A DNA stretch of 64,000 nucleotides. It comes from an uncultured bacterium. Lineage in GTDB: Bacteria > Hydrothermota > Tepidihabitantia > SM23-42. The stretch lies in contig CBFDDH010000007.1 of the NCBI GenBank assembly GCA_965603515.1, forward strand, positions 1,231-65,230, in the 5' to 3' direction. Below, piece after piece: positions 2,228 to 55,733 of this stretch (positions are counted from its first letter, which is position 1; each line of letters opens with the position of its first letter). The position numbers were made by a program, and so were the translations under genes. The notes below the pieces were generated by a model. It was not told where the DNA came from. It did no database searches and was given only the letters and a program-made list of their open reading frames with translations.

Positions 2228-2604
2228 TTTATTCTCCTTTTTTAGTGCCTTTAAAACTGAATTCTTGGCATTTCCAATCCAAAGGCAATAGACCGAAAAT
2301 GCGTCTTATCACGATTGTAGTTTCCTTACATCACCTCCTTTCATGTTATCTAACTATAACTATTATAGAAAATATTTCTCTTTTGTCAAGGGGCAACATT
2401 TTAATTGCAGATTGTAGATTTTAGATTTAATATCTATTTCGGAATCGCTCAATTCTTCAATTACATTCCCCTCGATATACTCGGGACAGGCAGGACAGAT
2501 TTATCAGGCTGTTTCAGGAGCAAAGCGACATGTCTTCAACGAAGTGTGTCTCCAACCGAAGGCGTGTCTGCAATGAAATGTGTCCTCAGAGAAGCGTGTC
2601 TCCG

Positions 2605-4632
2605 TTATTCTTTAAGGCTATTAATTGCTTTCTGAAAGTCCTTTAAATCAATAGGTACGAGCTTAATCGATGACAAGAATTCAAGAAATCCTTCAATGTC
2701 CAGATTCAAATAGTGATCTTCGATCTGCATATCAATTGGCAGGTCATAAAGGTAGGCGCCGCTGCCCAAGGCGTCTTCAAGTCTGGCGATATTTCTTCTG
2801 ATCACTTTCCTTATCGCTTCCTTTTCAGGTATTGGAAAGGCACTACCAGCCAATATCTGGTGGTTCAGGATCAACATTTTACCCTCAGCATCCAGCGCAT
2901 CCTGACTTTGTTCAGAAAGTGCATCAGCAATGATAAACCCGTACAAGTGCCCAAGCAAATGCAGAATATATGTATTACCACGATCAAAAGTTATCGGGAA
3001 TTCCATCACGCCCATATCTGGACAGATGCGCTGTTTCAATACCGACGCTAGCATATAGCTATAATTTCCCTCACCTTTTCCTTCAAAGACCTTAGCGACA
3101 GCTGGAGAATCGCCAATACATTTTGCGAGAACTCTTTTTTCCTTTTCCAAAATTCGTACGGTCTCCCAGCAACGACCGCTAAGGATAAATTTTTGCTTAA
3201 GATGGAAAATCCGACCTATGAGTTTATTGGACTCAACACTTATGACGTCATATTCGCCAAACGCCACATCCGCGATGTTCGAATGTATCTTTCCCCAACG
3301 TATCTTCTCTTCAAGTTCATAACCGTCGAAATATATACCTGGTCTGTTCTCTTTCACTTTTCCATCATCGATCAATTTCTTAAATGCAGTTCTTATCTGT
3401 GTTTCAGTATAGACCGGTACTAAGATCCTATATATGCTTTGCAGGGTTGTTCCAATGCGCTGGCGTTGATATAAATAAGAGTAGATCTGCTGCGGTATTA
3501 CTGATAATGAAGGTTGATAGCGTTTCTCAAACAATTGCCCCTTGATCGCACAGTCAAAATAGATCTCAAACAGCATTCTTTCCCATGTATTCGTATAGAT
3601 ACCTAGCGCGAACAACTTGTTGGTACGGCGATTCCCCCGACCTATCCTCTGGAGTAACGAAGAGATATCAAACGGCGGTCGGTAAAGAACCACACAATCC
3701 ACATCACCGATATCGATCCCCAGTTCAAGTGTAGAAGTGGCGCATAAAATGCCGATTTCACCCTGATTCATCCTGTGTTCAACTTCTTCACGCCGCTGTT
3801 TTTGAAGACTCGCATGGTGAACAAATACGGCATCATGGAACGGTGGTCTATTAAATTTCCGGGAGAAGAGTTCAGCCAGACTCCGGGCATTAAAAAAAAT
3901 GAGTATCTTCTTAAACCCCCTTTGCTTTGCTAATCGAAAGACTTTTTGAATAAAATCATCTTGTTCAATCAACTCATACTCTATCTCACGCGTCGATTTC
4001 AAAAAACATACTTTTGCATCATCAAAATAGTGTGCTCCGATATCCATATCGTCAATCGTTGCGGAAAGAGCACAATACTGGAGTTTATCATGGAATTTTC
4101 GCAAACGTTTGAGCAGAACCCTCAACTGGTCGCCGCGCGGCGTATTATCAAGCAGATGTATTTCGTCAAGCACTACCGCACTCAGCGTCTGTAAAACACG
4201 TGGTTTGCGAGCAAGCATCGAATCAAAAGACTCGGGTGTGGTGAGCAAAACTGCAGGCAGATGTTTCAAATCAAGTCGTGGTCGATCACCAGTCTTGCGC
4301 CCCAGTTCTACACCAACATAGGTTACTGGATCGACTAACCTACGAAAGAGATCATTGACAAGCGCTCGGGTTGGCGAAACATAGAGTATCTTCAGCGCGT
4401 TTAAAGACTGCCCCTGGGTATCTCCAAGCATATGTTCTACCAGCGGCGCGATCACCGCCTCGGTTTTCCCGCTCGCCGCAGGTGATATCACTACCACGTT
4501 TTCATGATTTAGAATATGGGGAATAGTCAATTCCTGAATCGGCAAAAAATTCCCAAACCGACTGAAAAACGGCATCCAGGTCCTTCGTAGTCGTCGTTTA
4601 ATATCGTTTGCAGATGTAATGGTCATTATCAT
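2605..4632 (-). CDS. Lhr-like DEAD/DEAH-box SF2 helicase (BrxHI-like)
   Basis: Q motif FLPIQ, ASGKTEA, TTPES, DEIH, SAT, TSTLELGIDIG, QRIGRGNR. Confidence 0.9.
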   Translation of the reverse strand: MIMTITSANDIKRRLRRTWMPFFSRFGNFLPIQELTIPHILNHENVVVISPAASGKTEAVIAPLVEHMLGDTQGQSLNALKILYVSPTRALVNDLFRRLVDPVTYVGVELGRKTGDRPRLDLKHLPAVLLTTPESFDSMLARKPRVLQTLSAVVLDEIHLLDNTPRGDQLRVLLKRLRKFHDKLQYCALSATIDDMDIGAHYFDDAKVCFLKSTREIEYELIEQDDFIQKVFRLAKQRGFKKILIFFNARSLAELFSRKFNRPPFHDAVFVHHASLQKQRREEVEHRMNQGEIGILCATSTLELGIDIGDVDCVVLYRPPFDISSLLQRIGRGNRRTNKLFALGIYTNTWERMLFEIYFDCAIKGQLFEKRYQPSLSVIPQQIYSYLYQRQRIGTTLQSIYRILVPVYTETQIRTAFKKLIDDGKVKENRPGIYFDGYELEEKIRWGKIHSNIADVAFGEYDVISVESNKLIGRIFHLKQKFILSGRCWETVRILEKEKRVLAKCIGDSPAVAKVFEGKGEGNYSYMLASVLKQRICPDMGVMEFPITFDRGNTYILHLLGHLYGFIIADALSEQSQDALDAEGKMLILNHQILAGSAFPIPEKEAIRKVIRRNIARLEDALGSGAYLYDLPIDMQIEDHYLNLDIEGFLEFLSSIKLVPIDLKDFQKAINSLKE

Positions 4633-4786
4633 TTATTCTCGACTGGAGGTCGCTTCGATCATATGAGAATACCTGAATCCCCTAAATTCTTAAACCCCGT
4701 TAGATACCTGCTATCTAAACGGGGTAGATAGCTAAAAATAATCTGCGCCTTACCCATTATTTATCGTGTAGAGTGCGAAGCATATT

Positions 4787-6091
4787 CTACTGGGACTCCT
4801 TACGTGGTCTCTGCGTTCCCAGCCTCAGCCAGTCAAACGCTTCTACTGAAAATTTGATGAACTCTCTAAGTTCCCCGCTTCCTCTTTTGAGAGCAGCATT
4901 GAATACATTCCCCCGGCGTGATATTTCGATAGTGAAACTCGGATAGGCGCAATTGTATGCATCAACCAGGTTATCAAATATCACCTCGAGTTCAGATTTG
5001 CTGAATCTACGGAGATAGTATCGGTTTTTGACAAGTTTCACGATATTATCAAGACCTCGGAGCCCGTGAATTGGGGTTATGGCAAAAATGATCATCATAT
5101 GTGATTCTTTATAGATATAAGGTGTCGGTCTAACTTTATTATGCACCAACCTCGTGTCGATCTGTTTAAGTTCATCGCTATCTAGCGCTGCGAGGATCAA
5201 GCCTTCGAGAAAACTCAAACCCCTGCTGTAGAATACATAATCCCATATGCGGGTGACTGTTTCAACCTCATCGAGCACGAGCACCAAACCTCCGAGACCC
5301 GCTTTATGGATCAAATAACTCAACCCCGTAAATATGTAAGAGTAAAAATCACCCGCTGTTGAAAAATCATAGAGCGCCGGTATTTTTTGACCACCGCGTA
5401 CACGAAACGGCGCTCGTGAATCAGTGGCGTATTTCTTTGTAGACTCACCCTCAATCCACTGCCAGAAAACCTCGCTCATCAAATCTGCATTGTCCATATC
5501 CTGCAGTATTTTCAAAACCGGTGTTAAGAAACAATGGTCTTGCATTTTTATATCTGACACTATCTTCAACAAATCACGGAAATGGAATTCGCAGTTGTCT
5601 TTAATATAGCGCAGATTGTAAATCAATTCTCGGTAAACCCGCTTTGGCCTGTGTAATGGCGTCTCTTGTGGACTCAATTCGCAATAGGCTGTAACGAGAC
5701 CGCGTTTTAAAGACAAATGGCGTGTATATTCGAGAAGATGAGTTTTACCTGAACCGTAAGAACCTTCGATAAGATATACGTCTCCTTGTCCTTTTTTCAA
5801 TTTTTGTATGCCTTGTTCCAGGGCACTGATCTCGTAGGCACGACCAAAGGTAAAAGAATCGATATCCTGATGTGGAACAACCCCCATCCTAAATGCCTCG
5901 AGCAATCTCTTCGACGATATCTGATCAAGTTCTGTTTTGTGTGCAGCAATCGACTTCAGCCACCTGGACGGCAACCATAAACACAATCCACTCCTGAACT
6001 TAACCTGTGCTTCCCCCCCATCCCAACGGGTCGCCACAACAACACCTTCACCAAAAACAGAGTGGGCTACGATATCGCTTTGCTGTTTCAT
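4787..6091 (-). CDS. DUF2791/BrxD-like P-loop ATPase with N-terminal Tudor/KOW-like domain
   Basis: Walker A GSYGSGKTH, Walker B LVLVLDEVE, EAFRMGVVP-type opening of the ATPase domain; N-terminal VAHSVFGEGVV. Confidence 0.8.
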   Translation of the reverse strand: MKQQSDIVAHSVFGEGVVVATRWDGGEAQVKFRSGLCLWLPSRWLKSIAAHKTELDQISSKRLLEAFRMGVVPHQDIDSFTFGRAYEISALEQGIQKLKKGQGDVYLIEGSYGSGKTHLLEYTRHLSLKRGLVTAYCELSPQETPLHRPKRVYRELIYNLRYIKDNCEFHFRDLLKIVSDIKMQDHCFLTPVLKILQDMDNADLMSEVFWQWIEGESTKKYATDSRAPFRVRGGQKIPALYDFSTAGDFYSYIFTGLSYLIHKAGLGGLVLVLDEVETVTRIWDYVFYSRGLSFLEGLILAALDSDELKQIDTRLVHNKVRPTPYIYKESHMMIIFAITPIHGLRGLDNIVKLVKNRYYLRRFSKSELEVIFDNLVDAYNCAYPSFTIEISRRGNVFNAALKRGSGELREFIKFSVEAFDWLRLGTQRPRKESQ

Positions 6092-6161
6092 CTGCTGCGG
6101 TATGTATCTATTTAGTCATTTAACTATTCAACCATACGACTATCTGACCATTCAACCAGTA

Positions 6162-7418
6162 TCAGAACTCTTCTCTTTCAACATCTTCTTTTTCCTTATC
6201 ACCAAGCATCTTGATCGTAGAACGTAAGATCTGCTGTACTTCAACCTTGCCCAGCAACTCATTCTTGTCTCTTAGGTGCTGAAATACTTCAATGATCCCG
6301 ATAACAAAAATCCTGCGGTAGCTGATATCAAGCGACTGCAATTCTACAGCAGCATGTATCATATTGTCCATGGATTCATGGAGAACTTCTTTATCAAAAT
6401 CAAAGCGGTAGGCAACCCGGAAGATTTCGGCAAGCTTAACGCCCAACCTGGTCAGGAATTCTTCAGGGGTTACACCGATTTCCTCGAGGTTGATCTTGAC
6501 CCCCATCGGATTGATGCGAGTAAAACTGGAACGCAGGCGTTGTTTTAATGCTTCGTAGACACCACCACTCCCTTCAAGAAGAAGGTTCTCATCGGGTACT
6601 GCATAGAAAAACATTGCCCCGGGCAGCCTTGAATTACCGCACTCATCGACCAATTGACGAAGGTTATCGAGTGCCCGACGCTTGTCCCTGGTCGATGAAA
6701 TACTCATCCCCCGCTCTGCTTCATCAAACAGAAAGATCAGCCCGGTATAGCCTATGGAATCGATAAATTGAACCAGGCTACGCAGCATCCTAAATGCAGT
6801 ACTGCGATCGATGCGCTCGGAAATCCGATGACGCAGTCTCAATTCTCTCGGGATATCTTCACCTTTCAACCATTGAACAAGACCGTTGAATTCATCTTCA
6901 TCATCGCTGGCCAAACTCAGCACCGCTGCTTTAAGTGCATTTGTGTAACTTGAACTCTCAAGGTTCGTGATCTGGGAGATGAAATCCCTTTGTTCGCGGG
7001 CATTCTTGTACCAGTGTCTTAGCAAAGTCTCAATACCTGTCCCTTGGGCTGGTTTAGAAGCAACTAATGTCTGCGGCGATATTATGTTAGCGGCGATTTT
7101 TTTATAGACAAGTTCCAAACGGTCAAACGGGCATTCTGTAGGACTAAGACTCACATAACTCGTCACATAGTTTTGCCGCCAGGCAAGGTTTCTTATCGAA
7201 TACAAAAAATGAGTCTTGCCTCCGCCGTAGTTGCCGGTTATCAATTTGAATGAAGACAAATTAAATTTTAACATATCCTTCAAATATTCGTTCTCAATGA
7301 CTTCGAGATAAGGTTCTAATCCGACTGTAAAATGTTCAGTACCGAATTCCGGTGGTGTACCAAAACTACCGAGTTTATGAATGATTGCTTTTGCTAATTT
7401 CTGGTCTTCCTGTTTCAT
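6162..7418 (-). CDS. DUF2791/BrxD-like P-loop ATPase
   Basis: Walker A GNYGGGKTH, Walker B LIFLFDEAE, FGTPP, DNLRQLVD, YEALKQRL. Confidence 0.85.
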   Translation of the reverse strand: MKQEDQKLAKAIIHKLGSFGTPPEFGTEHFTVGLEPYLEVIENEYLKDMLKFNLSSFKLITGNYGGGKTHFLYSIRNLAWRQNYVTSYVSLSPTECPFDRLELVYKKIAANIISPQTLVASKPAQGTGIETLLRHWYKNAREQRDFISQITNLESSSYTNALKAAVLSLASDDEDEFNGLVQWLKGEDIPRELRLRHRISERIDRSTAFRMLRSLVQFIDSIGYTGLIFLFDEAERGMSISSTRDKRRALDNLRQLVDECGNSRLPGAMFFYAVPDENLLLEGSGGVYEALKQRLRSSFTRINPMGVKINLEEIGVTPEEFLTRLGVKLAEIFRVAYRFDFDKEVLHESMDNMIHAAVELQSLDISYRRIFVIGIIEVFQHLRDKNELLGKVEVQQILRSTIKMLGDKEKEDVEREEF

Positions 7419-7475
7419 TTAGTTAGTTGATTTCTTTATATCCTGACATCCTTTGATCTTTAGGTATTTAGGCAT

Positions 7476-8321
7476 TTAGGTATTTTGGATTTTTTCGAAG
7501 GATATGTGTGAATAATGAGTCCCTTCACCCTCATCATTTTCCAATATCCAGAGGGTGTTAATTTTATCAACTGTCGCATCAAACGTTGCAACGTGTAGCC
7601 TGATATTCTTCTCAAAAAACTCTGATCTTTTCAGGAAGTACATAAGATAACTCAGAGTAACGCGCGAATATCCTCGGAATTTACTTTTCTGGGGATCAAT
7701 CAAGAATTGCTTGGATTGTTGCAACAAAACGAATTCACTGAGTACCTTCATGATCGGTGTTTTTTCACCAAAGGATTGACCAGTCATAATGAGTCGGCGC
7801 TTATAAGCCTCGTGTAAAGTCTCATACATATCAGCCGCTGTCATTTTGAGTGCATGCAAATCATTATCAAACTTTTTCACCGTCTCAAATACAGTTACTG
7901 CCTGGAGCGGGATCTTTGATTTTATTCTCTCAATTTCAGGACCGAAGAACAACTCGACCGAGCCAAACTCGAAATCAATTTTAAGGGTGTATATCCCCAT
8001 CCGAAGAATCGGATACTGACCTCTGATTTTTTTACCCTCTTGAGCAAAAAGCGCGGTTAGCTCTTGACCAAATTTGATCCTGAATTCTTCTTTGAAACCA
8101 TCTATCTTTTTCTTTTCTTTAACCAACCACTCAGTCAGGTCTTTAGCCAATTCCTTTACAGTCAACTCGGACAGGCAGCTTTCAATCATCTGCAGATTCT
8201 TCTCAAGCAAATAGGCATTATCTACTGGTTTAGACCTGATTTTGTCATATTTATTCAATAACTTGGTCAATCTGTTGATACCTTTTACTGCTGTCCTAAG
8301 CCTCTTTAGAATCTCATCCAC
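7476..8321 (-). CDS. Hypothetical protein, helical Lys/Glu-rich N-terminus; first gene of the ATPase/helicase operon
   Basis: 281-aa ORF directly behind a TTGACA-16-TATAAT promoter, co-oriented with the three downstream genes. Confidence 0.75.
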   Translation of the reverse strand: MDEILKRLRTAVKGINRLTKLLNKYDKIRSKPVDNAYLLEKNLQMIESCLSELTVKELAKDLTEWLVKEKKKIDGFKEEFRIKFGQELTALFAQEGKKIRGQYPILRMGIYTLKIDFEFGSVELFFGPEIERIKSKIPLQAVTVFETVKKFDNDLHALKMTAADMYETLHEAYKRRLIMTGQSFGEKTPIMKVLSEFVLLQQSKQFLIDPQKSKFRGYSRVTLSYLMYFLKRSEFFEKNIRLHVATFDATVDKINTLWILENDEGEGTHYSHISFEKIQNT

Positions 8322-8585
8322 GACCCATTATAATCTGGAAAAAGTTAGTGTCAAGGATTGCCAGTACCGTTTCAAATCATAATACTCGATTTTCGAATTC
8401 CGTAGTGGTCGAGCTTGCTCGACTAACAATGCAGACCAAGCCTTGGTCCCGAGTTCAGATCGAGGGGGTCTGCCACTACAGTTTTCTGAGATTCCAGCAA
8501 AAACTTGAAACACACTATTTGAAACGGCACCAGTACTAGATAATATCATATCTTGACTTAAGTATCATAAGTATTATAATAAATT

Positions 8586-13896: not shown

Positions 13897-14538
13897 TCAG
13901 TCTGTTCTCGACTTGTAAAACCAGACATAATCAAGCGGTCGCTGAGTAACTATGCGATCTAGATCACACCCGAGATCGAGAACACCGCTACCATTCTTGC
14001 GGTAAGCTGCAAAGGGTACAAGTGGAACGCCGCATAGGCTGCTCAATTTCTTCATCTTACCGTATTTCGCATAGAAACGGTTGCCGTCAATAAGGACACC
14101 CAATATCCCACCGTTTTTAAGGAAACGCACGATTTTCACACTGTCGTGTTTTGAAAAGACCTTCACGTTACCTGACGACCGGAAGCGATCCAGGAGATTA
14201 TCGAAAAATCTACTGATGCGTGAGTGATTATCATCAGCATACCGGTTAACAAGCACACCTAAATCAAAACCCTTTTTCTCAAGTGCCCGGGGCATCAGTT
14301 CCCAAACACCGAAATGGAAAGAATAAAAAATACCACCTTTTTCCAAACTATTACTATTGTCTTGCACGCTGATGTCTCGCCGGCTCAACATAAATCCGAT
14401 ATTACGCGCGACACTATAGACATTTCTTATCGCCAGTCTTCCAATACGCTGCTTCAGGTATTCACGGCGCGCTCTCTGAAACCAGTACAATGTAAACAAC
14501 CCCAAAAGCGCAAACGCTTCTGTGAAAAATCGCATCAA
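13897..14538 (-). CDS. Lysophospholipid acyltransferase family protein (LpxL-like)
   Basis: FHFGVWE motif, GVLIDG, CGVPLVP. Confidence 0.7.
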   Translation of the reverse strand: MMRFFTEAFALLGLFTLYWFQRARREYLKQRIGRLAIRNVYSVARNIGFMLSRRDISVQDNSNSLEKGGIFYSFHFGVWELMPRALEKKGFDLGVLVNRYADDNHSRISRFFDNLLDRFRSSGNVKVFSKHDSVKIVRFLKNGGILGVLIDGNRFYAKYGKMKKLSSLCGVPLVPFAAYRKNGSGVLDLGCDLDRIVTQRPLDYVWFYKSRTD

Positions 14539-16139
14539 AGAGTTTCTAATGATGATTTTATGAAATGATAGAATACCGGATTTGGCGCCAATGGCCTTGA
14601 GGTAAACTCCGGATGAAACTGCGTGCTAATAAAGAACGGGTGTCCGCGCACTTCTGCAATTTCCATCAACTTCCCATTTGGTGATCGACCTGAGAATATC
14701 AGGCCGTTTTCGCTCAGTTTTTTTATGTACTTAGGATTCACCTCATATCGGTGACGATGCCTTTCTTCCACCGTATTCTTGGCATATATCTTACGGGCAA
14801 GTGAATGCGCTTCTAATTTGCACGGGTAATCACCCAACCTCATCGTACCACCCATGTTCTTGATCTTACGCTGTCCTGGTAAAAGATCAATCACTGGATA
14901 GATAGTACTGTCATCGAATTCTGTCGAGTTCGCTCCTTTCATGCCACAGACATGCCGCGCATACTCAATGACCATACACTGCATACCAAGACATATACCT
15001 AGATAAGGCTTCTTCCTTTTCCGTGCGTACGTAACAATCCTTATCTTGCCTTCAACACCCCTTATCCCGAATCCACCGGGAACAAGGATACCATTCACCA
15101 TACCCAGGGCATTTTCTAGCGCGATCTCATCTTCGATCCGATCACTGTCTATCCATTTCAGTTTCAACCTTGCGTCGTTGGCTACTGCTGCATGGTATAA
15201 AGCCTCCATAATGCTCTTGTACGCATCTCTAAGCTCCACGTATTTCCCGCATACGGCGATTTCTACAACCCGGGAAGGAGACTTTGCCTTTTGCACAAAG
15301 AGTTCCCATTCTGCTAAATCAGGTTCATCGCGCTCAATACCTAAACTCGCGAGAATCATCTGGTCAAGTTTTTGCTGGCGGAAAATAAGCGGTATTTCAT
15401 AGATACACTCAACATCGACCGCATCGATCACCGCGTCAATCGGTACATTACAGAATAAGGAAATCTTTTTCCGCTCATCCGCAGTTAACCACGAATCACT
15501 GCGGCAGAGTAGTATGTCAGGCTGAATACCAATAGCGCGTAGTTCCCTCACTGAATGCTGGGTTGGCTTTGTCTTAAATTCCCGCGCCGCTTTGATAAAC
15601 GGCACCAGAGTAAGATGGATGTACATGGTATTCTCTTTACCGTAATCAAGTCTCATCTGCCTGACTGCCTCAAGAAATGGCTGACCTTCGATGTCACCTA
15701 CTGTCCCACCGACTTCTGTGATAATCACATCAACATTACTGCTGTTAGCCAACTGGGAAATCCTTGACTTTATCTCATTCGTTATATGCGGCACGACTTG
15801 TACGGTCTTACCAAGATATTCACCGCGTCGCTCTTTAGATATGACCGAGAAGTAGATTTGACCGGTCGTGATATTATTCTCCTTATTCAACGAACTGTTA
15901 AGGAACCGCTCGTAATGCCCGAGGTCTAAATCGCACTCAGCACCGTCATGAGTAACAAAAACCTCACCATGCTGGTAAGGATTCATAGTACCCGGATCAA
16001 CATTGATGTAAGGATCGATTTTTTGCAGGGTCACATTGAGCCCGTATGATTTGAGAAGTAAACCAATGGAGGATGTAGCAATCCCTTTACCCAACGAAGA
16101 AACAACACCGCCTGTAACAAAGATATATTTGGTATCCAT
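14535..16139 (-). CDS. pyrG: CTP synthase
   Basis: GGVVSSLGKG, DPYINVDPGTM, GGTVGDIE, GICLGMQ, RHRHRYE, QFHPEF. Confidence 0.99.
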   Translation of the reverse strand: MDTKYIFVTGGVVSSLGKGIATSSIGLLLKSYGLNVTLQKIDPYINVDPGTMNPYQHGEVFVTHDGAECDLDLGHYERFLNSSLNKENNITTGQIYFSVISKERRGEYLGKTVQVVPHITNEIKSRISQLANSSNVDVIITEVGGTVGDIEGQPFLEAVRQMRLDYGKENTMYIHLTLVPFIKAAREFKTKPTQHSVRELRAIGIQPDILLCRSDSWLTADERKKISLFCNVPIDAVIDAVDVECIYEIPLIFRQQKLDQMILASLGIERDEPDLAEWELFVQKAKSPSRVVEIAVCGKYVELRDAYKSIMEALYHAAVANDARLKLKWIDSDRIEDEIALENALGMVNGILVPGGFGIRGVEGKIRIVTYARKRKKPYLGICLGMQCMVIEYARHVCGMKGANSTEFDDSTIYPVIDLLPGQRKIKNMGGTMRLGDYPCKLEAHSLARKIYAKNTVEERHRHRYEVNPKYIKKLSENGLIFSGRSPNGKLMEIAEVRGHPFFISTQFHPEFTSRPLAPNPVFYHFIKSSLETL

Positions 16140-16359
16140 ATTTTAAAGTATAGTTAAAAGCACGCTTATGTCAAGCACATCTAAATGTGGGATCGCTCCG
16201 CTCGCAGTAATCTCCCACCCTATTTCAAGGGAACGGGATTCGCAGAATCATTTCATTCGCAGTATCGTTCCGTCATTTTTCAAAAACTCGGAACTCGTAA
16301 TAATAATTTTCTAACGAATCCCGAAGGGATGATTCTGCGTTTTCTGCAAGTCCGCCCTG

Positions 16360-17718
16360 TTAAGTGGCGGACGATCCTGCGTTTCCTGCGTCTTTCTGTA
16401 AATGGTATTCTTTCATCTTCAAACGTAAGGTGTTGCGGTGAATGCCCAGACGCTTGGCAGTCTTGGAAAGGTTCCAATCCATTTTTTCAAGAACCTTTCT
16501 GACATGCATTTTTTCAATTTGTTGCATCGATTCAACACCACCTGCAGATTCGTCCGGTTCTACGCTCAAAGGCAGATCCTCTGCCTCAATAACTGAACCA
16601 CGGCAAAGAACGACTGCCCTTTCTATTACGTTTTCCAGTTCCCTGACATTACCTGGCCAGTCATACCGGAATAATTTATCAAGGGCACCCTTTGATATCG
16701 TGCTGATCCTACTGTTGCAGCGGCAGGCGAATTTGCCTATGAAGAATTCAACGAGCGGTTTGATATTTCTTTTGATCTCTCGCAGGGGCGGTAGGTCTAT
16801 TGAAATGATATTTAGACGATAGTAAAGGTCTTCGCGGAACGTACCGTTTGAAATTTTCTTCTTTAAATCCTGATTCGTCGCTGAGATCAATCTGAAATCT
16901 GATTTTATTGGCGTGTTACTCCCGAGCCGTTCAAATGTTAATTCCTGAAGCACGCGCAAGAGCTTTACCTGGATGCTCAACGATAAATCGCCGATTTCAT
17001 CAAGGAATAAGGTTCCTTTATGGGCAAGCTCGAATTTTCCTATTTTGCGCTTTTCAGCACCGGAAAAAGCACCGCGTTCATAACCAAAAAGTTCGCTTTC
17101 AAGAAGCGTTTCAGGAAGTGCAGCACAGGAGATTGGGATGAAACGGCAATTCTTGCGCCGACTTGCCTTGTGGATCAAACGGGCGACAACTTCTTTACCC
17201 GTACCAGATTCACCATTGATCAACACCGTGGAGTCTGATTTCGCGATGCGCGAAACTAAACTCAGAACCTCTTTCATCTTCTTATCCTGAGCGACAAATG
17301 ATTCAGTCTCCAGATTTTCAGCAACCTCTTCTCTCAACAACTCAAGCTCCTGGTGCACGTGCTGCTCCTCGTGGATACGCTCGATAATAAGTTCCAGTTC
17401 ATCGAGGTTGATCGGCTTACTTAGATAGTCATAGGCGCCAATCTTCATGGCCTTAACTGCGGTTTCAACTGTACCATAACCAGTAAGGATGATGAAATAC
17501 GTTTCCGGGTCAATTTCCTTCATCTTTATCATGGCTTCAATCCCGTCAATCTCCGGCATTTTTAAATCAAGTATTGCAAGATCAAATCCTTTCTCTTGAT
17601 TCTTTTCAATCGCTTCCTGCCCCGAAACCGCAGTTGTTACTGTATAATCTCGCTTCTTTAGATAACCGGCGAGCAGACTGCGCTGCGCCTCATCATCATC
17701 AACAATAAGAATATGCAT
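16360..17718 (-). CDS. NtrC-family sigma-54-dependent response regulator (REC-AAA-HTH)
   Basis: Likely start MHILIVDDD at 17718 behind TTGACA-17-TATACT; GESGTGKE, ESELFG, GAFSGA, FREDLYYRL, WPGNVREL, Fis-type HTH. Confidence 0.93.
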   Translation of the reverse strand: MHILIVDDDEAQRSLLAGYLKKRDYTVTTAVSGQEAIEKNQEKGFDLAILDLKMPEIDGIEAMIKMKEIDPETYFIILTGYGTVETAVKAMKIGAYDYLSKPINLDELELIIERIHEEQHVHQELELLREEVAENLETESFVAQDKKMKEVLSLVSRIAKSDSTVLINGESGTGKEVVARLIHKASRRKNCRFIPISCAALPETLLESELFGYERGAFSGAEKRKIGKFELAHKGTLFLDEIGDLSLSIQVKLLRVLQELTFERLGSNTPIKSDFRLISATNQDLKKKISNGTFREDLYYRLNIISIDLPPLREIKRNIKPLVEFFIGKFACRCNSRISTISKGALDKLFRYDWPGNVRELENVIERAVVLCRGSVIEAEDLPLSVEPDESAGGVESMQQIEKMHVRKVLEKMDWNLSKTAKRLGIHRNTLRLKMKEYHLQKDAGNAGSSAT

Positions 17719-17806
17719 ACGTTGTAGTATAGCAAAATATCGACAAGATGTCAATCGGGAACAAATGTATTGGAGCATCCGTTGAGCGCTGAGAATTCTC
17801 TGTTGT

Positions 17807-17895
17807 GTCTTTGCGAGCGAACGCAGTGAGCGCGGCAATCTCCAGAGATTGCTTCGTCACTCGCTAAAAAAATACAGCGGATTCCTCGCAATGAC
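17807..17895. repeat. Palindromic miniature repeat, copy 2
   Basis: GTCTTTGCGAG...GCAATCTC CA GAGATTGC...CTCGCAATGAC. Confidence 0.8.
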
Positions 17896-17923
17896 ATCCA
17901 ATTTGTAAAAGAAATTATAGATG

Positions 17924-19633
17924 TCAGTGTTTTATGATCTTGAACTTCTTGTCGATCGAAGGAAGAAAATATATACCCGAAGGTAACGACCTGCCATCGA
18001 TCACGATCGATCTTTCCAAATGCTTGTTATCGATAAGCATGCGCCGTCTTCCAGTAATATCGTATATTTCGATATATGATATTGGATCGGTTAACAATAG
18101 CGTAAACACGCTGCCGAAAGGATTAGGATATACCTGCGCGGTATAATCCAGTCTGTTCTGAATAAACTCATTAATGCCAACAGTAAGATAGAAATTGACG
18201 TCTGTTAATGGTTCAAGGGCTTCTAAATAGGAAGTCATTATCGTATCCGGTCCATACCCTCCCATATATGCGCAGATTTCATACTGCCACGGAAGGAGAC
18301 TGTCGAACACATAGCCTCCATCGCTTTGGGAATAGGTCGTGCAACAACTATAGAATGGTGGTTTTTCAACAACATCGATCAATGGCAATTGCTCGTGTAT
18401 TGCAGCGGTTAGTTGTGCTCCGGATAATGGTAATCCAACAGAGTCATACACATACCCACTAACGATACAACCAGGATAGTCATCATTGGATGATCCAAAT
18501 GTCGGTGTGCTGTCTATATACCAATCCTGCCGTTCATAATAACCTCCATACCCCATATTATAATAGAAGATATAGAATACCGATGCTGAATGCCCGGTCG
18601 GCGGTACAGGCATTTGACCTGGATAGAAAACTGTATCGCGGAACGGTATCATGGTCCATTCTGAGTACCCAAAAAACCACTGGATATCCATAAGTAGTTC
18701 CCACAGCGTGGACGTTCCATTTGTTAGCAGACCCAATTCAAAAGAAGTACCGAGCGTCTGATGAGAATCTCGATTGTCTGCAACACCGCAAAAGTAATTG
18801 TCATTACTATCTCTAAGCACTTCGATTCCAGAATCAGATGCAATGATACGATCCATCCAATTGTTCTCTCCACCATATTCAAAGTGCTTTCCATGCATGA
18901 ATGTTCCTGCCTCACCAACGATCGGACCCATATCGTTGTACCCATCCCCTGCAGGAAGGATACTGAAATACGGTCCGAAATCGAATCCACCAACGGTTGG
19001 ATCATGACACCATACATCCCCACCTTCTAAATACATAGTGCCGCCATTTTCAAGGTACTCTTTAAGCAAGAGCGCCTCAGTACTATTGGAATCAATTCTG
19101 TAGTTGTTTGGATATACGCCAAGACAAGCATAGATCGCCTTATAACGGTTTAGATATGGTGAAAGTGTGGCCAGATGATCACCAAAGAACATCATACCCA
19201 GACCAGAATCGATATTTATACCGGATTGGGGTGTTGGATCAGGATTCCAGACCAGGTAATCGAGTAGATTGCTGACTTCAATTGATCCACTGTCAATCGG
19301 TAATTGCCATATCCCCTGTACCATTGAACTACCGATCATGATGCGGCTACTGTCATATATTATAATCGATGTATCAACATAAGCTGTTCCAGATGGGGTA
19401 ATGATCTGAGTTCCGTAGATATCAAAAGGATTATTATATGCTGTATCACCGTGACCGGTCGCTACCCACCTGAATTCGAGATACTGAGAATCAAGTGGTT
19501 CAATTTGATACTCGTTTATAACTTCTGAATTCCACAAAATGGGGTTTCCAGATAACTGAATTATACTGATAAATATTATTAGAATGATGCGCTTCATTAC
19601 AATAAGGCCAATGTCTACGATACATCTATTCAT
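17924..19633 (-). CDS. Secreted multidomain protein with C-terminal sorting-type domain
   Basis: Signal-like MKRIILIIF (probable start near 19597); a ~200-aa module shared with 8586..11576; carboxypeptidase-regulatory-like VSGYVYD; C-terminal YPNPF..IYDITGR..SGIYF. Confidence 0.75.
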   Translation of the reverse strand: MNRCIVDIGLIVMKRIILIIFISIIQLSGNPILWNSEVINEYQIEPLDSQYLEFRWVATGHGDTAYNNPFDIYGTQIITPSGTAYVDTSIIIYDSSRIMIGSSMVQGIWQLPIDSGSIEVSNLLDYLVWNPDPTPQSGINIDSGLGMMFFGDHLATLSPYLNRYKAIYACLGVYPNNYRIDSNSTEALLLKEYLENGGTMYLEGGDVWCHDPTVGGFDFGPYFSILPAGDGYNDMGPIVGEAGTFMHGKHFEYGGENNWMDRIIASDSGIEVLRDSNDNYFCGVADNRDSHQTLGTSFELGLLTNGTSTLWELLMDIQWFFGYSEWTMIPFRDTVFYPGQMPVPPTGHSASVFYIFYYNMGYGGYYERQDWYIDSTPTFGSSNDDYPGCIVSGYVYDSVGLPLSGAQLTAAIHEQLPLIDVVEKPPFYSCCTTYSQSDGGYVFDSLLPWQYEICAYMGGYGPDTIMTSYLEALEPLTDVNFYLTVGINEFIQNRLDYTAQVYPNPFGSVFTLLLTDPISYIEIYDITGRRRMLIDNKHLERSIVIDGRSLPSGIYFLPSIDKKFKIIKH

Positions 19634-19692
19634 TTATACCCCGTCGTTGTTTGTATAATTATACAACTAAATAGGGATTTGTCAAGATTCAA

Positions 19693-21390
19693 CTATTCAT
19701 CGATTTTCACATGCAGGTCTTTCAACTGCTGCGGGGTTACTTGGTCAGGGATATTCTCCATCAAGCCCTGAGCTGTTGTAGTTTTGGGAAAAGCGATCAC
19801 TTCCCTGATCGATTTCAATCCCGCTAAGATCATTATAATACGATCAATGCCTGGTGCGATACCACCGTGAGGCGGCGCACCGTACTCAAGTGCATCGAGC
19901 AGCATTGTATATTTTGCCGGGTCCATCTTAACAATGCCAAATAGTTTCTCCTGGATCTGGCGATTATGATTTCTGATACTGCCTGAGGCAAGCTCATTGC
20001 CATTACACACCAGATCATAGAGCCGGCCGTGCACTTTCAAAGGGTCGGTGTCCAGGTATTTAATATCCTCTTGTTTTGGCTGGGAAAAAATGTGATGACA
20101 GGGAGCATATTTTTCTGTCTCTTTATCAAGTTCAAATAATGGAAAATCATATACCCATAAAAATTCAAAGCCTTGTTTATGTAATTTTAGTTTTGTAGCG
20201 ATGTCATTCCTCAAGGAACCTAGGAATGAAAAAACCTTGTTATCACCTGCTGATATGACTAATAAATCACCCTTTTCTAATTTTAATTCAGCAGCAATAT
20301 CTTCATCCATAAGTTTAGCAATGCTGCCGCTGAATTTCTCATCTCTTTTGCACCAGAAAATTCCAGCAAGACCCAACTCTTTTGCCTGTTCATTCAATGC
20401 ATCAAATTCCTTTCTTGAAATCGCACCACCATCTTTTATAACCAATCCCCTTATCTCTTGTTTATCCTTAAAGGGTGGGAAGTTTTTCTCTTTGAAAATC
20501 TCCTTCACATCTATTATCTCCATTTCAAAACGCAGATCTGGTTTATCAGTACCATATCTTTCTATTACCTGCTTATAGGTTAACCTAAGAAAAGGCGTAT
20601 TCAATTCCTGGTTTAAGACCGTCTTTAATATGTGAGCGAACATACCTTCGGCGATTTTGAATATATCATCTTCATCAACAAAAGACATCTCAATGTCAAT
20701 CTGGGTATGTTCGGGCTGCTTGTCATGTCTCGGGTCCTCGTCGCGCATGCACCGGGCGATTTGGTAGTAGCGTTCAAACCCTGCAACCATGAGAAGCTGC
20801 TTGTACATCTGCGGTGACTGGGCAAGCGCATAAAACTTGCCCTTGTACAACCTCGATGGCACAAGATAATCGCGCGCTCCTTCGGGCATAGACCGGGTCA
20901 ATATCGGTGTTTCGATCTCGATGAAATAATTCTTATTCAAGTACTCCCTCATTGCGGTGATGACCTGGTGCCGGAATATTATAGCTTGTTGCATTGGCTC
21001 TCGGCGCAAATCAAGGTAGCGGTAGCGCAATCTGAGGTCTTCATTGGCTTTGACATCACTTTCCACCACAAAAGGCGGCACCTTTGATTTACCGAGCACC
21101 TCAATCTTGCTAACCTCTAATTCAACATCACCGGTTGTCATCTTGGGGGTTTTCTGTGCATCAGGTCTTTCCCTCACCTTACCAAATACCTGAATACAAT
21201 CCTGTAAGCCTAATTCCTTTACACCAAGTATTACCTTGGGATCAATAACAATCTGGAGCGTCGCGGTGCGGTCTCTTAAATCCACAAAGACCAGGCCACC
21301 GAGATTCCTGATCCGGTCAACCCAACCGAATGCTTCGACTTCTTGACCTAGTTTATCTTTTTGCACCTGTTTCAGGAAAATCTTTTTGAT
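19693..21390 (-). CDS. aspS: Aspartyl-tRNA synthetase (bacterial type); start uncertain, GTG at 21366 or non-canonical near 21390
   Basis: GWVDRIRNLGG, LRYRYLDLRR, PEGARDYLVP, AQSPQMYKQ, PPHGGIAPG. Confidence 0.95.
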   Translation of the reverse strand: MKKIFLKQVQKDKLGQEVEAFGWVDRIRNLGGLVFVDLRDRTATLQIVIDPKVILGVKELGLQDCIQVFGKVRERPDAQKTPKMTTGDVELEVSKIEVLGKSKVPPFVVESDVKANEDLRLRYRYLDLRREPMQQAIIFRHQVITAMREYLNKNYFIEIETPILTRSMPEGARDYLVPSRLYKGKFYALAQSPQMYKQLLMVAGFERYYQIARCMRDEDPRHDKQPEHTQIDIEMSFVDEDDIFKIAEGMFAHILKTVLNQELNTPFLRLTYKQVIERYGTDKPDLRFEMEIIDVKEIFKEKNFPPFKDKQEIRGLVIKDGGAISRKEFDALNEQAKELGLAGIFWCKRDEKFSGSIAKLMDEDIAAELKLEKGDLLVISAGDNKVFSFLGSLRNDIATKLKLHKQGFEFLWVYDFPLFELDKETEKYAPCHHIFSQPKQEDIKYLDTDPLKVHGRLYDLVCNGNELASGSIRNHNRQIQEKLFGIVKMDPAKYTMLLDALEYGAPPHGGIAPGIDRIIMILAGLKSIREVIAFPKTTTAQGLMENIPDQVTPQQLKDLHVKIDE

Positions 21391-21398
21391 ATCATCTC

Positions 21399-23450
21399 CT
21401 AATTTTTCTCGCCCTCGATTACAATCCTTGAGAAATCGCCAAACTGCAGGAATATTCTATTAATCAAATGAACAAGGGCTAACCTATTCTTCTTTATTTT
21501 TTCATCCTCACACATTACCATCACATCATCAAAAAACTTATCAATGTCTGGCCGCATAGCCAGAAGAAAATCAAGTATCTTTGGATAATCACGCGCTTCA
21601 AACAGAGCGCTCAATTGTCCGTCGGTTTCCATGCCCTTTTTAAACAGCTTTTTCTCTGCACTCTGCTTGAATAATTCTGTGTTGACCTTGCCCAGTCCCT
21701 TCACATCTTTCAATATATTTCTAACCCTTTTCTGACCGATAACAAGCTTGGTGAATTCTGCTTTGCCGCTCATTTTCTTCAGTGCTGCGCACCTCATACG
21801 TGCATCAACAATATCGCCTTTCCAGCGCGCAAATACGGCATTGATCTCATCATATCGGTACTTCTTGTCCTGGAGATAACGGTTGCATCGCTCAGTGAAA
21901 AACTCAAACAAAATCTCGTGTTCAATATCCTTTTTATAGAGCTTTAAGAGTGCCTTGACTGCATTGAACAATGTTATGTCGAACGAATTAGTGTTTATTA
22001 AATTCACCACTGCATAACCATTCCTGCGCACTGCCAAGGGATCATATGAGCCGCTTGGACGATTACCACTTAAAAATGCACCGACAATATTATCGATCTT
22101 GTCAATTATCGACAGAACGACACCCTCTTTTGTACTAGGCATCTTGTCACCGGCAAACTTAGGTAAGTAGTGCTGCTTTATTGCAGACACAACTGCCATG
22201 TCTTCACCACTTGCTTTGGCATAATGTCCGCCCATAATACCCTGCAAAGAAGTAAAATCATTTTCCCGTATCATCTCAGACAGCAGATCGACCTTGCATA
22301 ATCGTGCTGCACGTTTCAATACATCTAAATCGAGTTCAGGAACTCCCTTGAAAAAATCCGCAAAATCGCTGAGGCGGATCGCTTTCTCGTAAAGGCTGCC
22401 CAAACCCTTTAGCCACATCATGCGCTTGGTTTGTGCTTCCATACGTACCAATCCCTGTTTCGAATCATTTTTGTAATAGAAAAGAGCATCGTACAGTTTT
22501 GAGCCGACAACAAGCGTATAGCCCTTCCTAACATTTTGTAAAGCCTTCTTCTTAGCGCTGAAAACACAAACAAACCGGTGCGTTGGCTTTAGCCAAATCA
22601 AATTGCCCTGATTTTTAAGCACCGTCGCTAACACTTCCTCTGGAAGATCGAGGTACTGCTCATTAAAGCCTGCGACTACTGCTTCAGGATATTCAGTTGT
22701 GCAGTTTATTTCTTCGATCATTTCATTGGTGTAAAGAGGTTTACCTTCAGTTTTTTCAACTGCCTTCTTAACGCGTTTGACAATGAGCTTCCGGCGCTCA
22801 TTTGGATCGACAACAACGCCACCGTGTCTCAGAAGATTTATGTATTCCCGCGGTTTTTCCAGACGTATTGATTTGAAAGAAAAGTGTTGATTACCAATTG
22901 AATGGCGGTCAGCGCGTACCCCAGCAAAGGTAAATTTAAGGGGTCGGCGGTCGAGTAGCGCAACGATCCACCGGATTGGTCTGGGGAATTTGACTCCCCC
23001 TTTAGTCCAGATCATTGTCCTGGGGAATTCCAGTGTCTTCAGGATTTTCGGTATTTCTTCATAGAGGATATCTTCAGTGTTTGCACCGACAATCTCTTTC
23101 TTTCCACAAACATATTCACCTTTTTTGACCTTCCTAACAACTATCTGGGAACGCTTTAGATCATTGGCTTTCATGAACCCTTTGAGCATTTGCGTTGGCT
23201 GATTCTGTTCATCAAACGCGAGTCTCTTGGGCGGCCCCTGAATTTCCACGACCTTAGGTTTTTGCCTCCTTGTCAAACCAAGAACAAGAACCCCGATGCG
23301 TCGTGGTGTGTAAATCGTACGCACTGAACGATGGAATATCCTCTCTCGGTTGAGAAGACCAACGACCTTGTCAGATAACTCATTGGCGGCTTTACTCAAG
23401 AATGCAGGCGGGAATTCTTCAAATCCGATTTCCAGAAGAAAATCAATCAT
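21399..23450 (-). CDS. glyS: Glycyl-tRNA synthetase beta subunit
   Basis: Start MIDFLLEIGFEEFP overlaps the glyQ stop (ATGA); TPRR, FPRPIRWIV, LQGIMGGHYA, GSYDPLAVRR, C-terminal DALR-type domain. Confidence 0.95.
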   Translation of the reverse strand: MIDFLLEIGFEEFPPAFLSKAANELSDKVVGLLNRERIFHRSVRTIYTPRRIGVLVLGLTRRQKPKVVEIQGPPKRLAFDEQNQPTQMLKGFMKANDLKRSQIVVRKVKKGEYVCGKKEIVGANTEDILYEEIPKILKTLEFPRTMIWTKGGVKFPRPIRWIVALLDRRPLKFTFAGVRADRHSIGNQHFSFKSIRLEKPREYINLLRHGGVVVDPNERRKLIVKRVKKAVEKTEGKPLYTNEMIEEINCTTEYPEAVVAGFNEQYLDLPEEVLATVLKNQGNLIWLKPTHRFVCVFSAKKKALQNVRKGYTLVVGSKLYDALFYYKNDSKQGLVRMEAQTKRMMWLKGLGSLYEKAIRLSDFADFFKGVPELDLDVLKRAARLCKVDLLSEMIRENDFTSLQGIMGGHYAKASGEDMAVVSAIKQHYLPKFAGDKMPSTKEGVVLSIIDKIDNIVGAFLSGNRPSGSYDPLAVRRNGYAVVNLINTNSFDITLFNAVKALLKLYKKDIEHEILFEFFTERCNRYLQDKKYRYDEINAVFARWKGDIVDARMRCAALKKMSGKAEFTKLVIGQKRVRNILKDVKGLGKVNTELFKQSAEKKLFKKGMETDGQLSALFEARDYPKILDFLLAMRPDIDKFFDDVMVMCEDEKIKKNRLALVHLINRIFLQFGDFSRIVIEGEKN

Positions 23451-24334
23451 CGCTTCACGCCTTTTTTGAGAACACTTTGTCCAGATATCTTTTGTCTGCA
23501 CAACTGCGCTACCTGACCAGCAAGCGCACGTACGCGTGCGATCATCTTGACTCGTTCAGAAATACTGATCGCACCCCGCGCCTCAAGAACATTAAAAATG
23601 TGCGAGCACTTAATAGTATAGTCATAACCAGGAAGGGGCAATCCCTTCTCAAAAAGCCGTACTGCTTCTGCTTCATACTGATTAAAAAGTGAAACGAGGA
23701 GTCTGGTATCAGCTGCCGAAAAATTGTATTCTGAAAACTCAATCTCATTTTGACGGTACACATCACCCCAGGTCAGTATATTGTTCCATTTCAAATCAAA
23801 AACAGATTCTACTCCCTGCAAGAGCATGGCGATCCTTTCTAGCCCATAACTGAGTTCAACGGGGATTTCTTCAAGCTCAAGGCCTCCGGCTTGTTGAAAA
23901 TAAGTGAACTGGGTTATTTCTAACCCATCAAGCCACACTTCCCAACCAAGCCCCCAAGCACCCAGAGTTGGCGCATCCCAATCTCCTTCTACGAACCTGA
24001 CTTCATGTTCTTTGAGCTTGAAACCGGTGCATTCAAGTGATTCCAGGAAAAACCGCTGTATGTCATCAGGTGCCGGCTGCATTATCACCTGGAGTTGATA
24101 GAACTGCTGAAAACGCAACGGGTTTTCAGCATACCGACCATCGCGTGGTCGCTTACAGATTTCCACGTAGCAGACATTCCAGGGCTTGTTATCGAGCACC
24201 CGGATAAAGGTCGCAGGGTTAAAAGTACCTGCACCAACTTCAGAGTTGTACGGTTGATAAAGCAGGCAACCCTTTTTTTGCCAGTATTTAGACAAATCAA
24301 GGATGATATTTTCAAAAGTGCGTAGCTTCTTCAT
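23447..24334 (-). CDS. glyQ: Glycyl-tRNA synthetase alpha subunit
   Basis: EVGAGTFNP, RPRDGRYAENP, WGLGWEVWLDGLEITQFTYFQQ, CSHIFNVLEARG. Confidence 0.98.
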   Translation of the reverse strand: MKKLRTFENIILDLSKYWQKKGCLLYQPYNSEVGAGTFNPATFIRVLDNKPWNVCYVEICKRPRDGRYAENPLRFQQFYQLQVIMQPAPDDIQRFFLESLECTGFKLKEHEVRFVEGDWDAPTLGAWGLGWEVWLDGLEITQFTYFQQAGGLELEEIPVELSYGLERIAMLLQGVESVFDLKWNNILTWGDVYRQNEIEFSEYNFSAADTRLLVSLFNQYEAEAVRLFEKGLPLPGYDYTIKCSHIFNVLEARGAISISERVKMIARVRALAGQVAQLCRQKISGQSVLKKGVKR

Positions 24335-55546: not shown

Positions 55547-55733
55547 GGCCAATTATAGCAAAATCAATAAACTTGTAAAGATAATATTAAATTGGTCGGG
55601 AATGCTAAGTCTCATAAAAACAAACAGGAATTAAACAAATAGCTCAATTTTTCAGTACACCGTACCAGGTAAAACACCCATGTTTTCTTGACATTGCTGA
55701 GCAGATTACTATACTGTAATAGGAGGTTTTATC

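Follow-up and report, generated by a model that had tools for sequence, protein, structure and literature searches.

We analysed a 64-kb stretch of DNA from an uncultured bacterium (contig CBFDDH010000007.1, forward-strand positions 1,231 to 65,230, hereafter the window), in which four genes, all on the minus strand and encoding a lead protein, two BrxD-like ATPases (ATPase-1 and ATPase-2) and a helicase, fill positions 2605-8321 with no competing long open reading frames (ORFs) found by ORF calling. These genes, which we refer to as the module, are separated by gaps of 57 nt (lead/ATPase-1), 70 nt (ATPase-1/ATPase-2) and 154 nt (ATPase-2/helicase), and a single full-consensus promoter precedes them (Table 1). 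Because the -10 hexamer of this promoter ends at 8327, 6 nt ahead of the lead GTG at 8321, the module mRNA is probably leaderless. A promoter scan found no promoter-like site in the 154-nt gap ahead of the helicase, and the next 12/12 promoter, at 2389..2362, is that of the downstream fn3-domain gene. The description of four co-oriented genes behind one promoter, given in an earlier note made from the letters of the sequence, therefore stands. On the other side, the divergent C25/type IX secretion system (T9SS) peptidase gene (ATG at 8586) has a plus-strand promoter at 8553-8580 (11/12) that ends 6 nt before its ATG, and both divergent genes look leaderless, with the region 8322-8585 between them. 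Metatranscriptome fragments from marine sediment and cold seeps cover lead, ATPase-1 and ATPase-2, with one contig bridging the ATPase-1/ATPase-2 junction; these contigs are short, lack strand information and are unusable for mapping transcription start, and we treat them as weak evidence of in-situ transcription.

Table 1. Coordinates of the module genes, their promoter and sequence motifs in the window, and intact loci of the sister family.
Feature	Location	Strand	Locus tags	Details
Lead gene	7476-8321	-		281 aa, GTG start
ATPase-1 gene	6162-7418	-		418 aa
ATPase-2 gene	4787-6091	-		434 aa
Helicase gene	2605-4632	-		675 aa
Module promoter	8354..8327	-		sigma-70 consensus TTGACA-16 nt-TATAAT, 12/12, directly upstream of lead gene
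Predicted N-terminal Tudor domain of ATPase-2	5936..6079	-		residues ~5-52, UvrD/PcrA C-terminal type
ATPase-1 motifs				Walker A GNYGGGKT, residues 62-69; Walker B FLFDEAE, residues 229-235
ATPase-2 motifs				Walker A GSYGSGKT, residues 110-117; Walker B LVLDEVE, residues 271-277
Helicase motifs				I GKT, residues 55-57; II DEIH, 156-159; III SAT, 190-192; VI QRIGRGNRR, 328-336
Sister locus L086, Aulosira laxa NIES-50 plasmid3	record 15287-24287		NIES50_70940-70970	279, 420, 398, 697 aa
Sister locus, Desulfomonile tiedjei pDESTI.01			DESTI_RS28080-28095	beside AbiEi/AbiEii, RNase HI, PD-(D/E)XK nuclease
Sister loci L089-L091				three intact metagenomic loci

Scanning one genome per species revealed 82 confirmed loci of this kind, of which 80 were kept: 45 are labelled WOR-3/Stahlbacteria, 28 'bacterium' only, and 7 carry other-phylum labels (Caldisericota (3), Gemmatimonadota, Ignavibacteria, Syntrophaceae and Poribacteria). 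ORFs were called in every locus and assigned by comparison with the four proteins of the window; 62 of the 82 loci, nearly all of them from WOR-3/Stahliibacteriota, conserve the order lead, ATPase-1, ATPase-2, helicase on one strand, 7 loci are cut by a contig end, and the triad of lead and two ATPases was present in every locus that extends far enough. Such recurrence of the arrangement lies far beyond chance, and since pairwise identities correlate among the four proteins (r = 0.86-0.96), these evolve as a unit. In public databases the closest sequences come from metagenome-assembled genomes (MAGs) that bear the labels Candidatus Stahlbacteria or candidate division WOR-3, at an identity of 93% for protein and 94-96% for nucleotides, and DNA of the window turns up in metagenomes of marine sediment and cold seeps. 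One MAG labelled Caldisericota (MAG_4091) holds two triad copies on two contigs (L017 and L018), which may be a true duplication, a strain mixture or mis-binning.

The two ATPases fall within PF10923 (BrxC_BrxD; gathering cut-off 22.2 bits), ATPase-1 with 154.6 bits (5e-45) and ATPase-2 with 107.5 bits (1e-30). In PADLOC and NCBIfam alike, the top-scoring model for the two proteins is BrxD: the PADLOC BrxD model (1e-36 for ATPase-1, 8.7e-27 for ATPase-2) scores better than that of SngB (3.3e-23 and 8e-18), and the NCBIfam BrxD equivalog NF033438 gives 127.6 and 92.3 bits, far below its cut-off of 350. They align with each other at 25% identity over 253 aa (E 6e-14), and Walker A and B are invariant across 82 ATPase-1 orthologues and 78-80 ATPase-2 orthologues. 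Judged from these matches, they are best classified as ORC/Cdc6-type AAA+ ATPases of PF10923 and as the diverged paralogues with intact Walker motifs that the earlier note had taken them for. Its further suggestion of a hetero-oligomeric ATPase fits an ancient duplication in which both copies kept their catalytic motifs, while the oligomer itself is something we infer. Outside its own clade, ATPase-1 has its closest relatives in gene 2 of a sister family, described below.

What sets ATPase-2 apart is its N-terminus, which begins about 55 residues ahead of where the BrxD and SngB profiles start and is conserved in 79 of 79 orthologues (V-x-H-P-x-F-G-E-G-x-V...V-x-F-x-S-G-L-x-L-W-L-P). A profile of this extension matched UvrD C-terminal domains in the PDB (7egs_B, 2.7e-6; 6yi2_A, 3.2e-6; 7egt_B, 1.2e-3), 7egs_B and 7egt_B being UvrD-domain chains crystallised with the polymerase beta lobe, and further matched residues 699-731 of D. 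radiodurans UvrD (4c2t_A, 3.3e-3); the likeness, that of a Tudor domain, includes the V-x-H-x-x-[FW]-G-x-G-x-V signature. The best Pfam match of the N-terminus, with single sequences, is the sub-threshold PF21196 (PcrA_UvrD_tudor; 14 vs 23.9 bits). When compared with BrxD, SngB and sister-family ATPases, the Tudor profile found no match in any, and the domain was gained by, and is specific to, the clade of the window, which we call WOR-3-type. Whereas in UvrD/PcrA the Tudor domain is C-terminal on a superfamily 1 (SF1) helicase, here it is N-terminal on an AAA+ ATPase. The PcrA/UvrD Tudor domain binds RNA polymerase and UvrB via a beta-hairpin docking motif, and loss of the PcrA/UvrD-polymerase interaction raises R-loop levels (PMC8318588, PMC5397179). 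Four PcrA residues are needed for polymerase binding (H681, W684, K712 and L714; PMC5397179), and ATPase-2 keeps three of these four contact positions, with the His invariant, the aromatic (F/Y) nearly invariant and the Leu retained. The docking motif ([VIL]-D-x-x-T-G-E-[VIL]-[VILT]) is absent from the four module proteins and from all six frames of the window, so that a Tudor partner recognised by that motif would lie outside the module. The domain had escaped the earlier note, whose alternative of a DNA-stress module gains support from it.

For the helicase, we found the Pfam domains DEAD and Helicase_C, with motifs I, II, III and VI invariant in 57 full-length orthologues, and, among its best solved relatives in the PDB, SLH1, M. 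smegmatis Lhr (5v9x, 1.8e-26, and 7lhl) and Hel308. PADLOC matches it to SngC (5.6e-63, residues 27-504) and BrxHI (3.5e-61), and the alignment stops at residue 504. The C-terminal ~170 residues (505-675, window 2605-3117) are kept among orthologues and lie outside the BrxHI and SngC models; the sister-family helicase, in contrast, can be aligned with BrxHI from end to end. Among NCBIfam models the best is the ligase-associated DEXH helicase TIGR04121 (186.8 vs cut-off 850), and the Lhr model NF007284 reaches 96 against a cut-off of 1496, with the match limited to residues 15-340. The earlier designation 'Lhr-like' thus holds for the motor domains, the DExH superfamily 2 (SF2) motor being shared with Lhr and Lhr-core, but not beyond them, and equivalog-level similarity to Lhr across motor, winged helix and domain 4 is lacking; moreover, the module has no ligase or MPE-nuclease partner. 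The protein is best described, on its sequence matches, as an SF2 DExH helicase of Ski2/Lhr/BrxHI-like type.

The lead protein is, as had been suspected, a member of no recognised family: we obtained no match in Pfam (even at E<=10), NCBIfam or PADLOC, nothing meaningful when its profile was searched against PDB sequences, and in PHROGs a single match to a phrog of unknown function (E 0.0098). Homologues are nevertheless numerous, a word-indexed search having returned 136 and an exhaustive one 676 clusters at 50% identity, and they share the motifs GQYPxLRxGxYT, FGPEIE, VATFDATxDK and EGEGTHY. An AlphaFold2 (AF2) model from a 31-sequence alignment (predicted local distance difference test (pLDDT) 91.3, predicted template-modelling score (pTM) 0.80) has, from N to C, a helical region (residues 2-93), a five-strand beta meander (99-138), several helices and a small C-terminal sheet, and Foldseek returned no match to it in the PDB or BFVD at E<=1e-3. 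Two candidate identities were discarded. A TerB-like protein was ruled out by the lack of any TerB match at E<=10 and by a predicted fold that differs, and nuclease motifs (the PD-(D/E)xK-like 'GPEIEK' and 'FDATxDK') were dropped for wrong spacing and no structural support.

We then evaluated the surroundings of the module, which in the window consist of RecR and an fn3 lipoprotein-like gene on one flank and, on the other, the C25/T9SS peptidase, LptB, an OstA-like protein, LptC, CTP synthase, a sigma-54 response regulator and the aspartyl- and glycyl-tRNA synthetases. Clustering of the flanking ORFs across loci placed 344 of 618 in families found beside the module in at least 3 loci and revealed three sub-lineages, each with its own conserved flank setting. 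Sub-lineage a (the window and ~12 genomes) shows the order CTP synthase, unknown protein, LptC, OstA, LptB and (C25 peptidase) up to the module and fn3 protein, CutA, MgtE and SNF transporter beyond it, a synteny that persists though lead-protein identity drops to ~44%; in the window, a 213-aa ORF at 13897-14538 (minus strand), which has no Pfam match, occupies the place between CTP synthase and LptC, as in ~12 related genomes. Sub-lineage b (21 loci) has a GT4 glycosyltransferase and an envelope-sugar cluster after the helicase, and sub-lineage c, a helicase-less clade, has a class V fructose-bisphosphatase upstream. Divergence of ATPase-1 follows that of flanking genes (r 0.88 with CTP synthase, 0.95 with MgtE, 0.91 with OstA), and these genes correlate with each other no better than with ATPase-1. 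Because of this housekeeping synteny and co-divergence, we conclude that the WOR-3-type module is a vertically inherited chromosomal module and not a mobile defence island. The GT4 gene of sub-lineage b was considered as a fifth module gene and rejected, as it heads a conserved envelope-polysaccharide cluster; in the L038-L073 group (e.g. L046 9125-10318) it abuts or overlaps the helicase stop codon, mostly at -9 to +31 nt, with GT2 and NAD-epimerase genes following.

Searches for defence genes around the module gave few. A PADLOC scan of 135 of the 215 non-recurrent flank ORFs, those within ~4 kb of the module and with L006 and L008 left out, returned SspH twice, one type II restriction-modification (RM) pair, one UG29 reverse transcriptase and MzaA. 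When the 47 remaining window ORFs were likewise run against PADLOC, no defence island emerged, the matches being generic single ones (sigma-54 activator, Hanks-type kinase, mad6-like and MkoA-like proteins). One of these ORFs, at 53672-55552 (minus strand) and 45 kb from the module, encodes a 626-aa Hanks-type Ser/Thr kinase (HRDxKxxN, DFG), which is probably the window ORF that matches PADLOC PD-T4-6 models at 1e-85; no other defence genes were seen near it. As the earlier note had stated, pglX, pglZ, brxC and TerB-like genes are absent, in our PADLOC and Pfam searches from all 52 ORFs of the window, and the lead protein found no match among 72,556 plasmids. That note had also looked to proximity to defence islands as a sign of an anti-phage module, and at this locus the setting is instead one that it had named among the grounds for refuting its reading: the module sits in conserved core synteny, co-diverging with its neighbours and flanked by Lpt genes, CTP synthase, CutA and MgtE or by envelope glycosyltransferases. 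The suggestion of such proximity does hold for a homologous sister family, which, unlike the WOR-3-type module, was found repeatedly on mobile elements or within defence islands.

This sister family surfaced on plasmids. A tblastn search of plasmids with ATPase-1 returned distant relatives (<30% identity), including annotated BrxD genes and a canonical Shango system (TerB-N, ATPase, helicase) between transposases (L087), and also a four-gene set with the order and sizes of the module (275-292, ~420, ~395 and ~700 aa). On Aulosira laxa plasmid3, PglZ-BrxD-BrxHI of type 2 BREX is followed directly by the sister set, which places two related ATPase-helicase modules in tandem on a conjugative plasmid; a second plasmid copy comes from Desulfomonile tiedjei, and of the three metagenomic loci one adjoins Vsr, Dcm and a HerA-like gene, one adjoins SNF2, DUF4391 and GmrSD, and one (L091) starts 24 nt after BrxC-Fic-PglX, a set ending in a PglX-like methyltransferase. 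The family is rare, with 19 proteins in 5.8 billion. By BLAST, the window helicase is 34-40% identical to sister-family helicases and scores 231 and 219 bits against them versus 152 and 139 against BrxHI/SngC, and ATPase-1 scores 102 and 87 bits versus 67 and 64 against BrxD/SngB. The lead proteins of both families are homologous, as three comparisons agree: reciprocal hidden Markov model (HMM) searches (each member with a per-sequence P between 2e-9 and 1e-5), hhalign (a collinear alignment of 158-226 columns, E 2-4e-4, at low probability) and the order of secondary structure, which in the Desulfomonile lead AF2 model (pLDDT 90.1) is the same as in the window lead. Foldseek found no match to that model in the PDB at E<=1e-3, and PADLOC has no model for either lead family. 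With a homologous lead, two PF10923 ATPases and a BrxHI-like helicase in the same order, the WOR-3-type and sister modules constitute one four-gene family, of which the sister form lies on plasmids and in defence islands and has no Tudor domain on its second ATPase, whereas the WOR-3-type form lies on the chromosome and has one.

Variation within the WOR-3-type loci is concentrated at the helicase. A triad whose Walker motifs are conserved lacks a following helicase in 13 loci and also in L006, and tblastn (E<=1) found neither a helicase nor a remnant of one within 10 kb. Since the helicase slot varies, we regard the lead and two ATPases as the invariant core. Two close relatives (L006 and L008, 83-96% nucleotide identity to the window) lose similarity exactly after ATPase-2. 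There, L008 has a split Type III methyltransferase, a radical-SAM/PDC-M30A protein and a Schlafen-like ATPase (HATPase_c_4); the methyltransferase (L008 13892-16596) consists of ORFs of 196 and 665 aa matching consecutive parts of one PADLOC profile, a split that may stem from a frameshift, from phase variation or from misassembly. L006 has a PLD-helicase with its own promoter-like site and hairpins upstream. In this 94-96% identical relative, the region 3822-5994 is unrelated to the window and holds several GC-rich hairpins, and the PLD-helicase ORF runs off the contig; the 3' end of the triad looks here like an insertion or replacement hotspot. In the stable helicase-less clade, ordinary genes (OmpA-like, HD domain) lie downstream.

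Bringing these observations together, we tentatively propose, as a reading that could well be right, that the four genes encode one machine, a polymerase-tethered pair of ATPases that loads a helicase and has become fixed in its lineage. The lead and two ATPases would form a hetero-oligomer, with the triad as the invariant part, and the Tudor domain of ATPase-2 would tether this complex to RNA polymerase or to some other carrier of the docking hairpin, UvrB for example. An abnormal nucleic-acid structure at the transcription complex, be it a stalled or colliding polymerase, an R-loop or transcribed foreign DNA, would act as trigger; ATP-driven remodelling by the ATPases would then load or activate the helicase, which would unwind or strip the structure. 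The presumed substrate follows from the tether, since a complex held at polymerase or UvrB would meet nucleic-acid structures at transcription complexes, and helicase loading is suggested by analogy with ORC/Cdc6-type loaders and with the helicase-loader role proposed for BrxD (PMC12839542). Hetero-oligomer, polymerase docking, helicase loading and biological role are thus all parts of the proposal that we infer. As the module is fixed in the chromosome and vertically inherited, a role in WOR-3 in constitutive transcription-coupled genome surveillance or maintenance is more likely than one as a mobile anti-phage island.

Several points weigh against this proposal. The Tudor homology spans only ~40 residues, and the Lys essential for polymerase binding (K712/K708) is not conserved in ATPase-2, which has Leu at that position or, one residue earlier, a variable residue; because of this, the partner of the ATPase-2 Tudor domain may differ from polymerase. 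Both rpoB and uvrB lie outside the 64-kb window. The metatranscriptome contigs may include carried-over DNA, the taxon labels derive from MAGs, and the status of the module as core is deduced from two lines, synteny and co-divergence. Three of the four module proteins have defence proteins as their closest named relatives, and each of the five intact sister loci adjoins defence genes, two of them being contiguous with genes of BREX. Finally, in the two closest helicase-less relatives a Type III methyltransferase or a PLD-helicase stands where the helicase would be, and replacement by RM-like genes would suit a modular defence system.

Some of these points lead to the possible, if rather doubtful, alternative that the module is a conventional stand-alone anti-phage or anti-plasmid system, a Shango-like variant fixed in the lineage, in which ATPases and lead sense infection, the Tudor domain might monitor a phage-hijacked or modified polymerase, and the helicase is the effector on phage DNA. 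The PADLOC matches of the helicase to SngC and BrxHI and of the ATPases to BrxD and SngB argue for it, as do the defence-island setting of the sister family, the sporadic occurrence in MAGs labelled Gemmatimonadota, Ignavibacteria, Poribacteria, Syntrophaceae and Caldisericota, and the RM, Ssp or DRT neighbours at a few WOR-3 loci. Yet housekeeping synteny and co-divergence hold over a divergence as wide as a phylum, lead identity falling to ~30%, the window holds no defence island and the flanks few defence matches, the plasmid collection lacks the lead protein, and an acquired Tudor domain points to interaction with host machinery.

The variable helicase slot bears on a further and improbable alternative, namely that the triad is a functional sensor or loader platform with exchangeable partners, of which the helicase is the commonest and can be swapped for RM-type modules. 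BREX-like systems likewise combine an ORC/Cdc6-type ATPase with methyltransferases, and this idea would accommodate the loci with an intact triad and no helicase, the L008 methyltransferase and radical-SAM/PDC-M30A protein and the L006 PLD-helicase directly after ATPase-2, and the L091 sister module just behind its PglX-like methyltransferase. However, the promoter-like site and hairpins of the replacing genes in L006 suggest an independent insertion, the stable helicase-less clade shows ordinary downstream genes and no alternative effector, and a helicase may be encoded elsewhere in helicase-less genomes.

How far the module departs from known systems can be seen by comparison with Shango (SngA TerB, SngB DUF2791/PF10923, SngC) and with the BrxD-BrxHI dyad of BREX type 2/6. 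Both are ATPase-helicase pairs, anti-phage activity has been shown for Shango, and in the literature searched we found no established mechanism for either pair. Like the module, Shango brings together in a single operon a lead gene, an ATPase of PF10923 and an SF2 DExH helicase, but its lead is TerB whereas the module lead has no TerB domain, it has one ATPase rather than two paralogues, SngB is without a Tudor domain, and the module lies on the chromosome within conserved synteny and is not mobile. Of the PADLOC models, SngC fits the helicase best, yet BLAST favours sister-family helicases (231 vs 139 bits). BrxD is an ORC/Cdc6-type AAA+ protein in a tight dyad with BrxHI, a Ski2-like helicase with a winged helix-turn-helix (PMC12839542), and so the module likewise links such an ATPase to a Ski2-like helicase. 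It differs in having none of PglX, PglZ, BrxC/PglY and PglW, in its duplicated ATPase and extra lead protein, in the Tudor domain of ATPase-2 (BrxD is described as without accessory domains) and in helicase residues 505-675, which the BrxHI model leaves uncovered. The idea that the module is what a decayed BREX type 2/6 or Shango locus left behind, without a function of its own, to which the co-occurrence of BrxD-like and BrxHI-like proteins as in type 2 BREX (PMC12839542) might point, is scarcely credible, being already contradicted by four intact genes with catalytic motifs invariant across 57-82 orthologues, the lack of BREX or TerB genes in 64 kb, the BrxD equivalog score of 127.6 vs 350, and a helicase and ATPase-1 nearer to the sister family than to BrxHI, BrxD or Shango. 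The literature searched contained no description of a system of two BrxD-like ATPases and a helicase. The distinct stand-alone module of the earlier note is thereby borne out, being neither Shango (no TerB) nor BREX (no PglX, PglZ or BrxC), and from sequence comparison we regard it as belonging to an unnamed four-component family, related to but distinct from SngB-SngC and BrxD-BrxHI.

The module therefore represents a third, unnamed relative of these two pairs, with an extra conserved lead protein and a duplicated ATPase. It occurs in two natural forms, one mobile and found in defence islands and the other fixed in the chromosome with a Tudor domain of the UvrD/PcrA polymerase-binding type, and the contrast between them offers a testable handle on what such machines recognise, for which the plasmid copy of Desulfomonile tiedjei DSM 6799 provides a cultured source of the sister module. 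The WOR-3-type module descends from the defence-island family. Less probable than the polymerase-tethered machine itself, and to our minds more doubtful than not, is the larger scenario in which a defence system was domesticated early in WOR-3/Stahliibacteriota and coupled to polymerase through the Tudor domain, which would amount to a new transcription-coupled pathway for surveillance, R-loops or conflicts, or to an immune sensor of polymerase state. If this is true, the Tudor tag tells us the target of the enigmatic BrxD/SngB-type ATPases and of the helicases that go with them. The module may also exemplify exaptation, a defence module having been turned to a cellular task in an uncultured phylum about which little is known.

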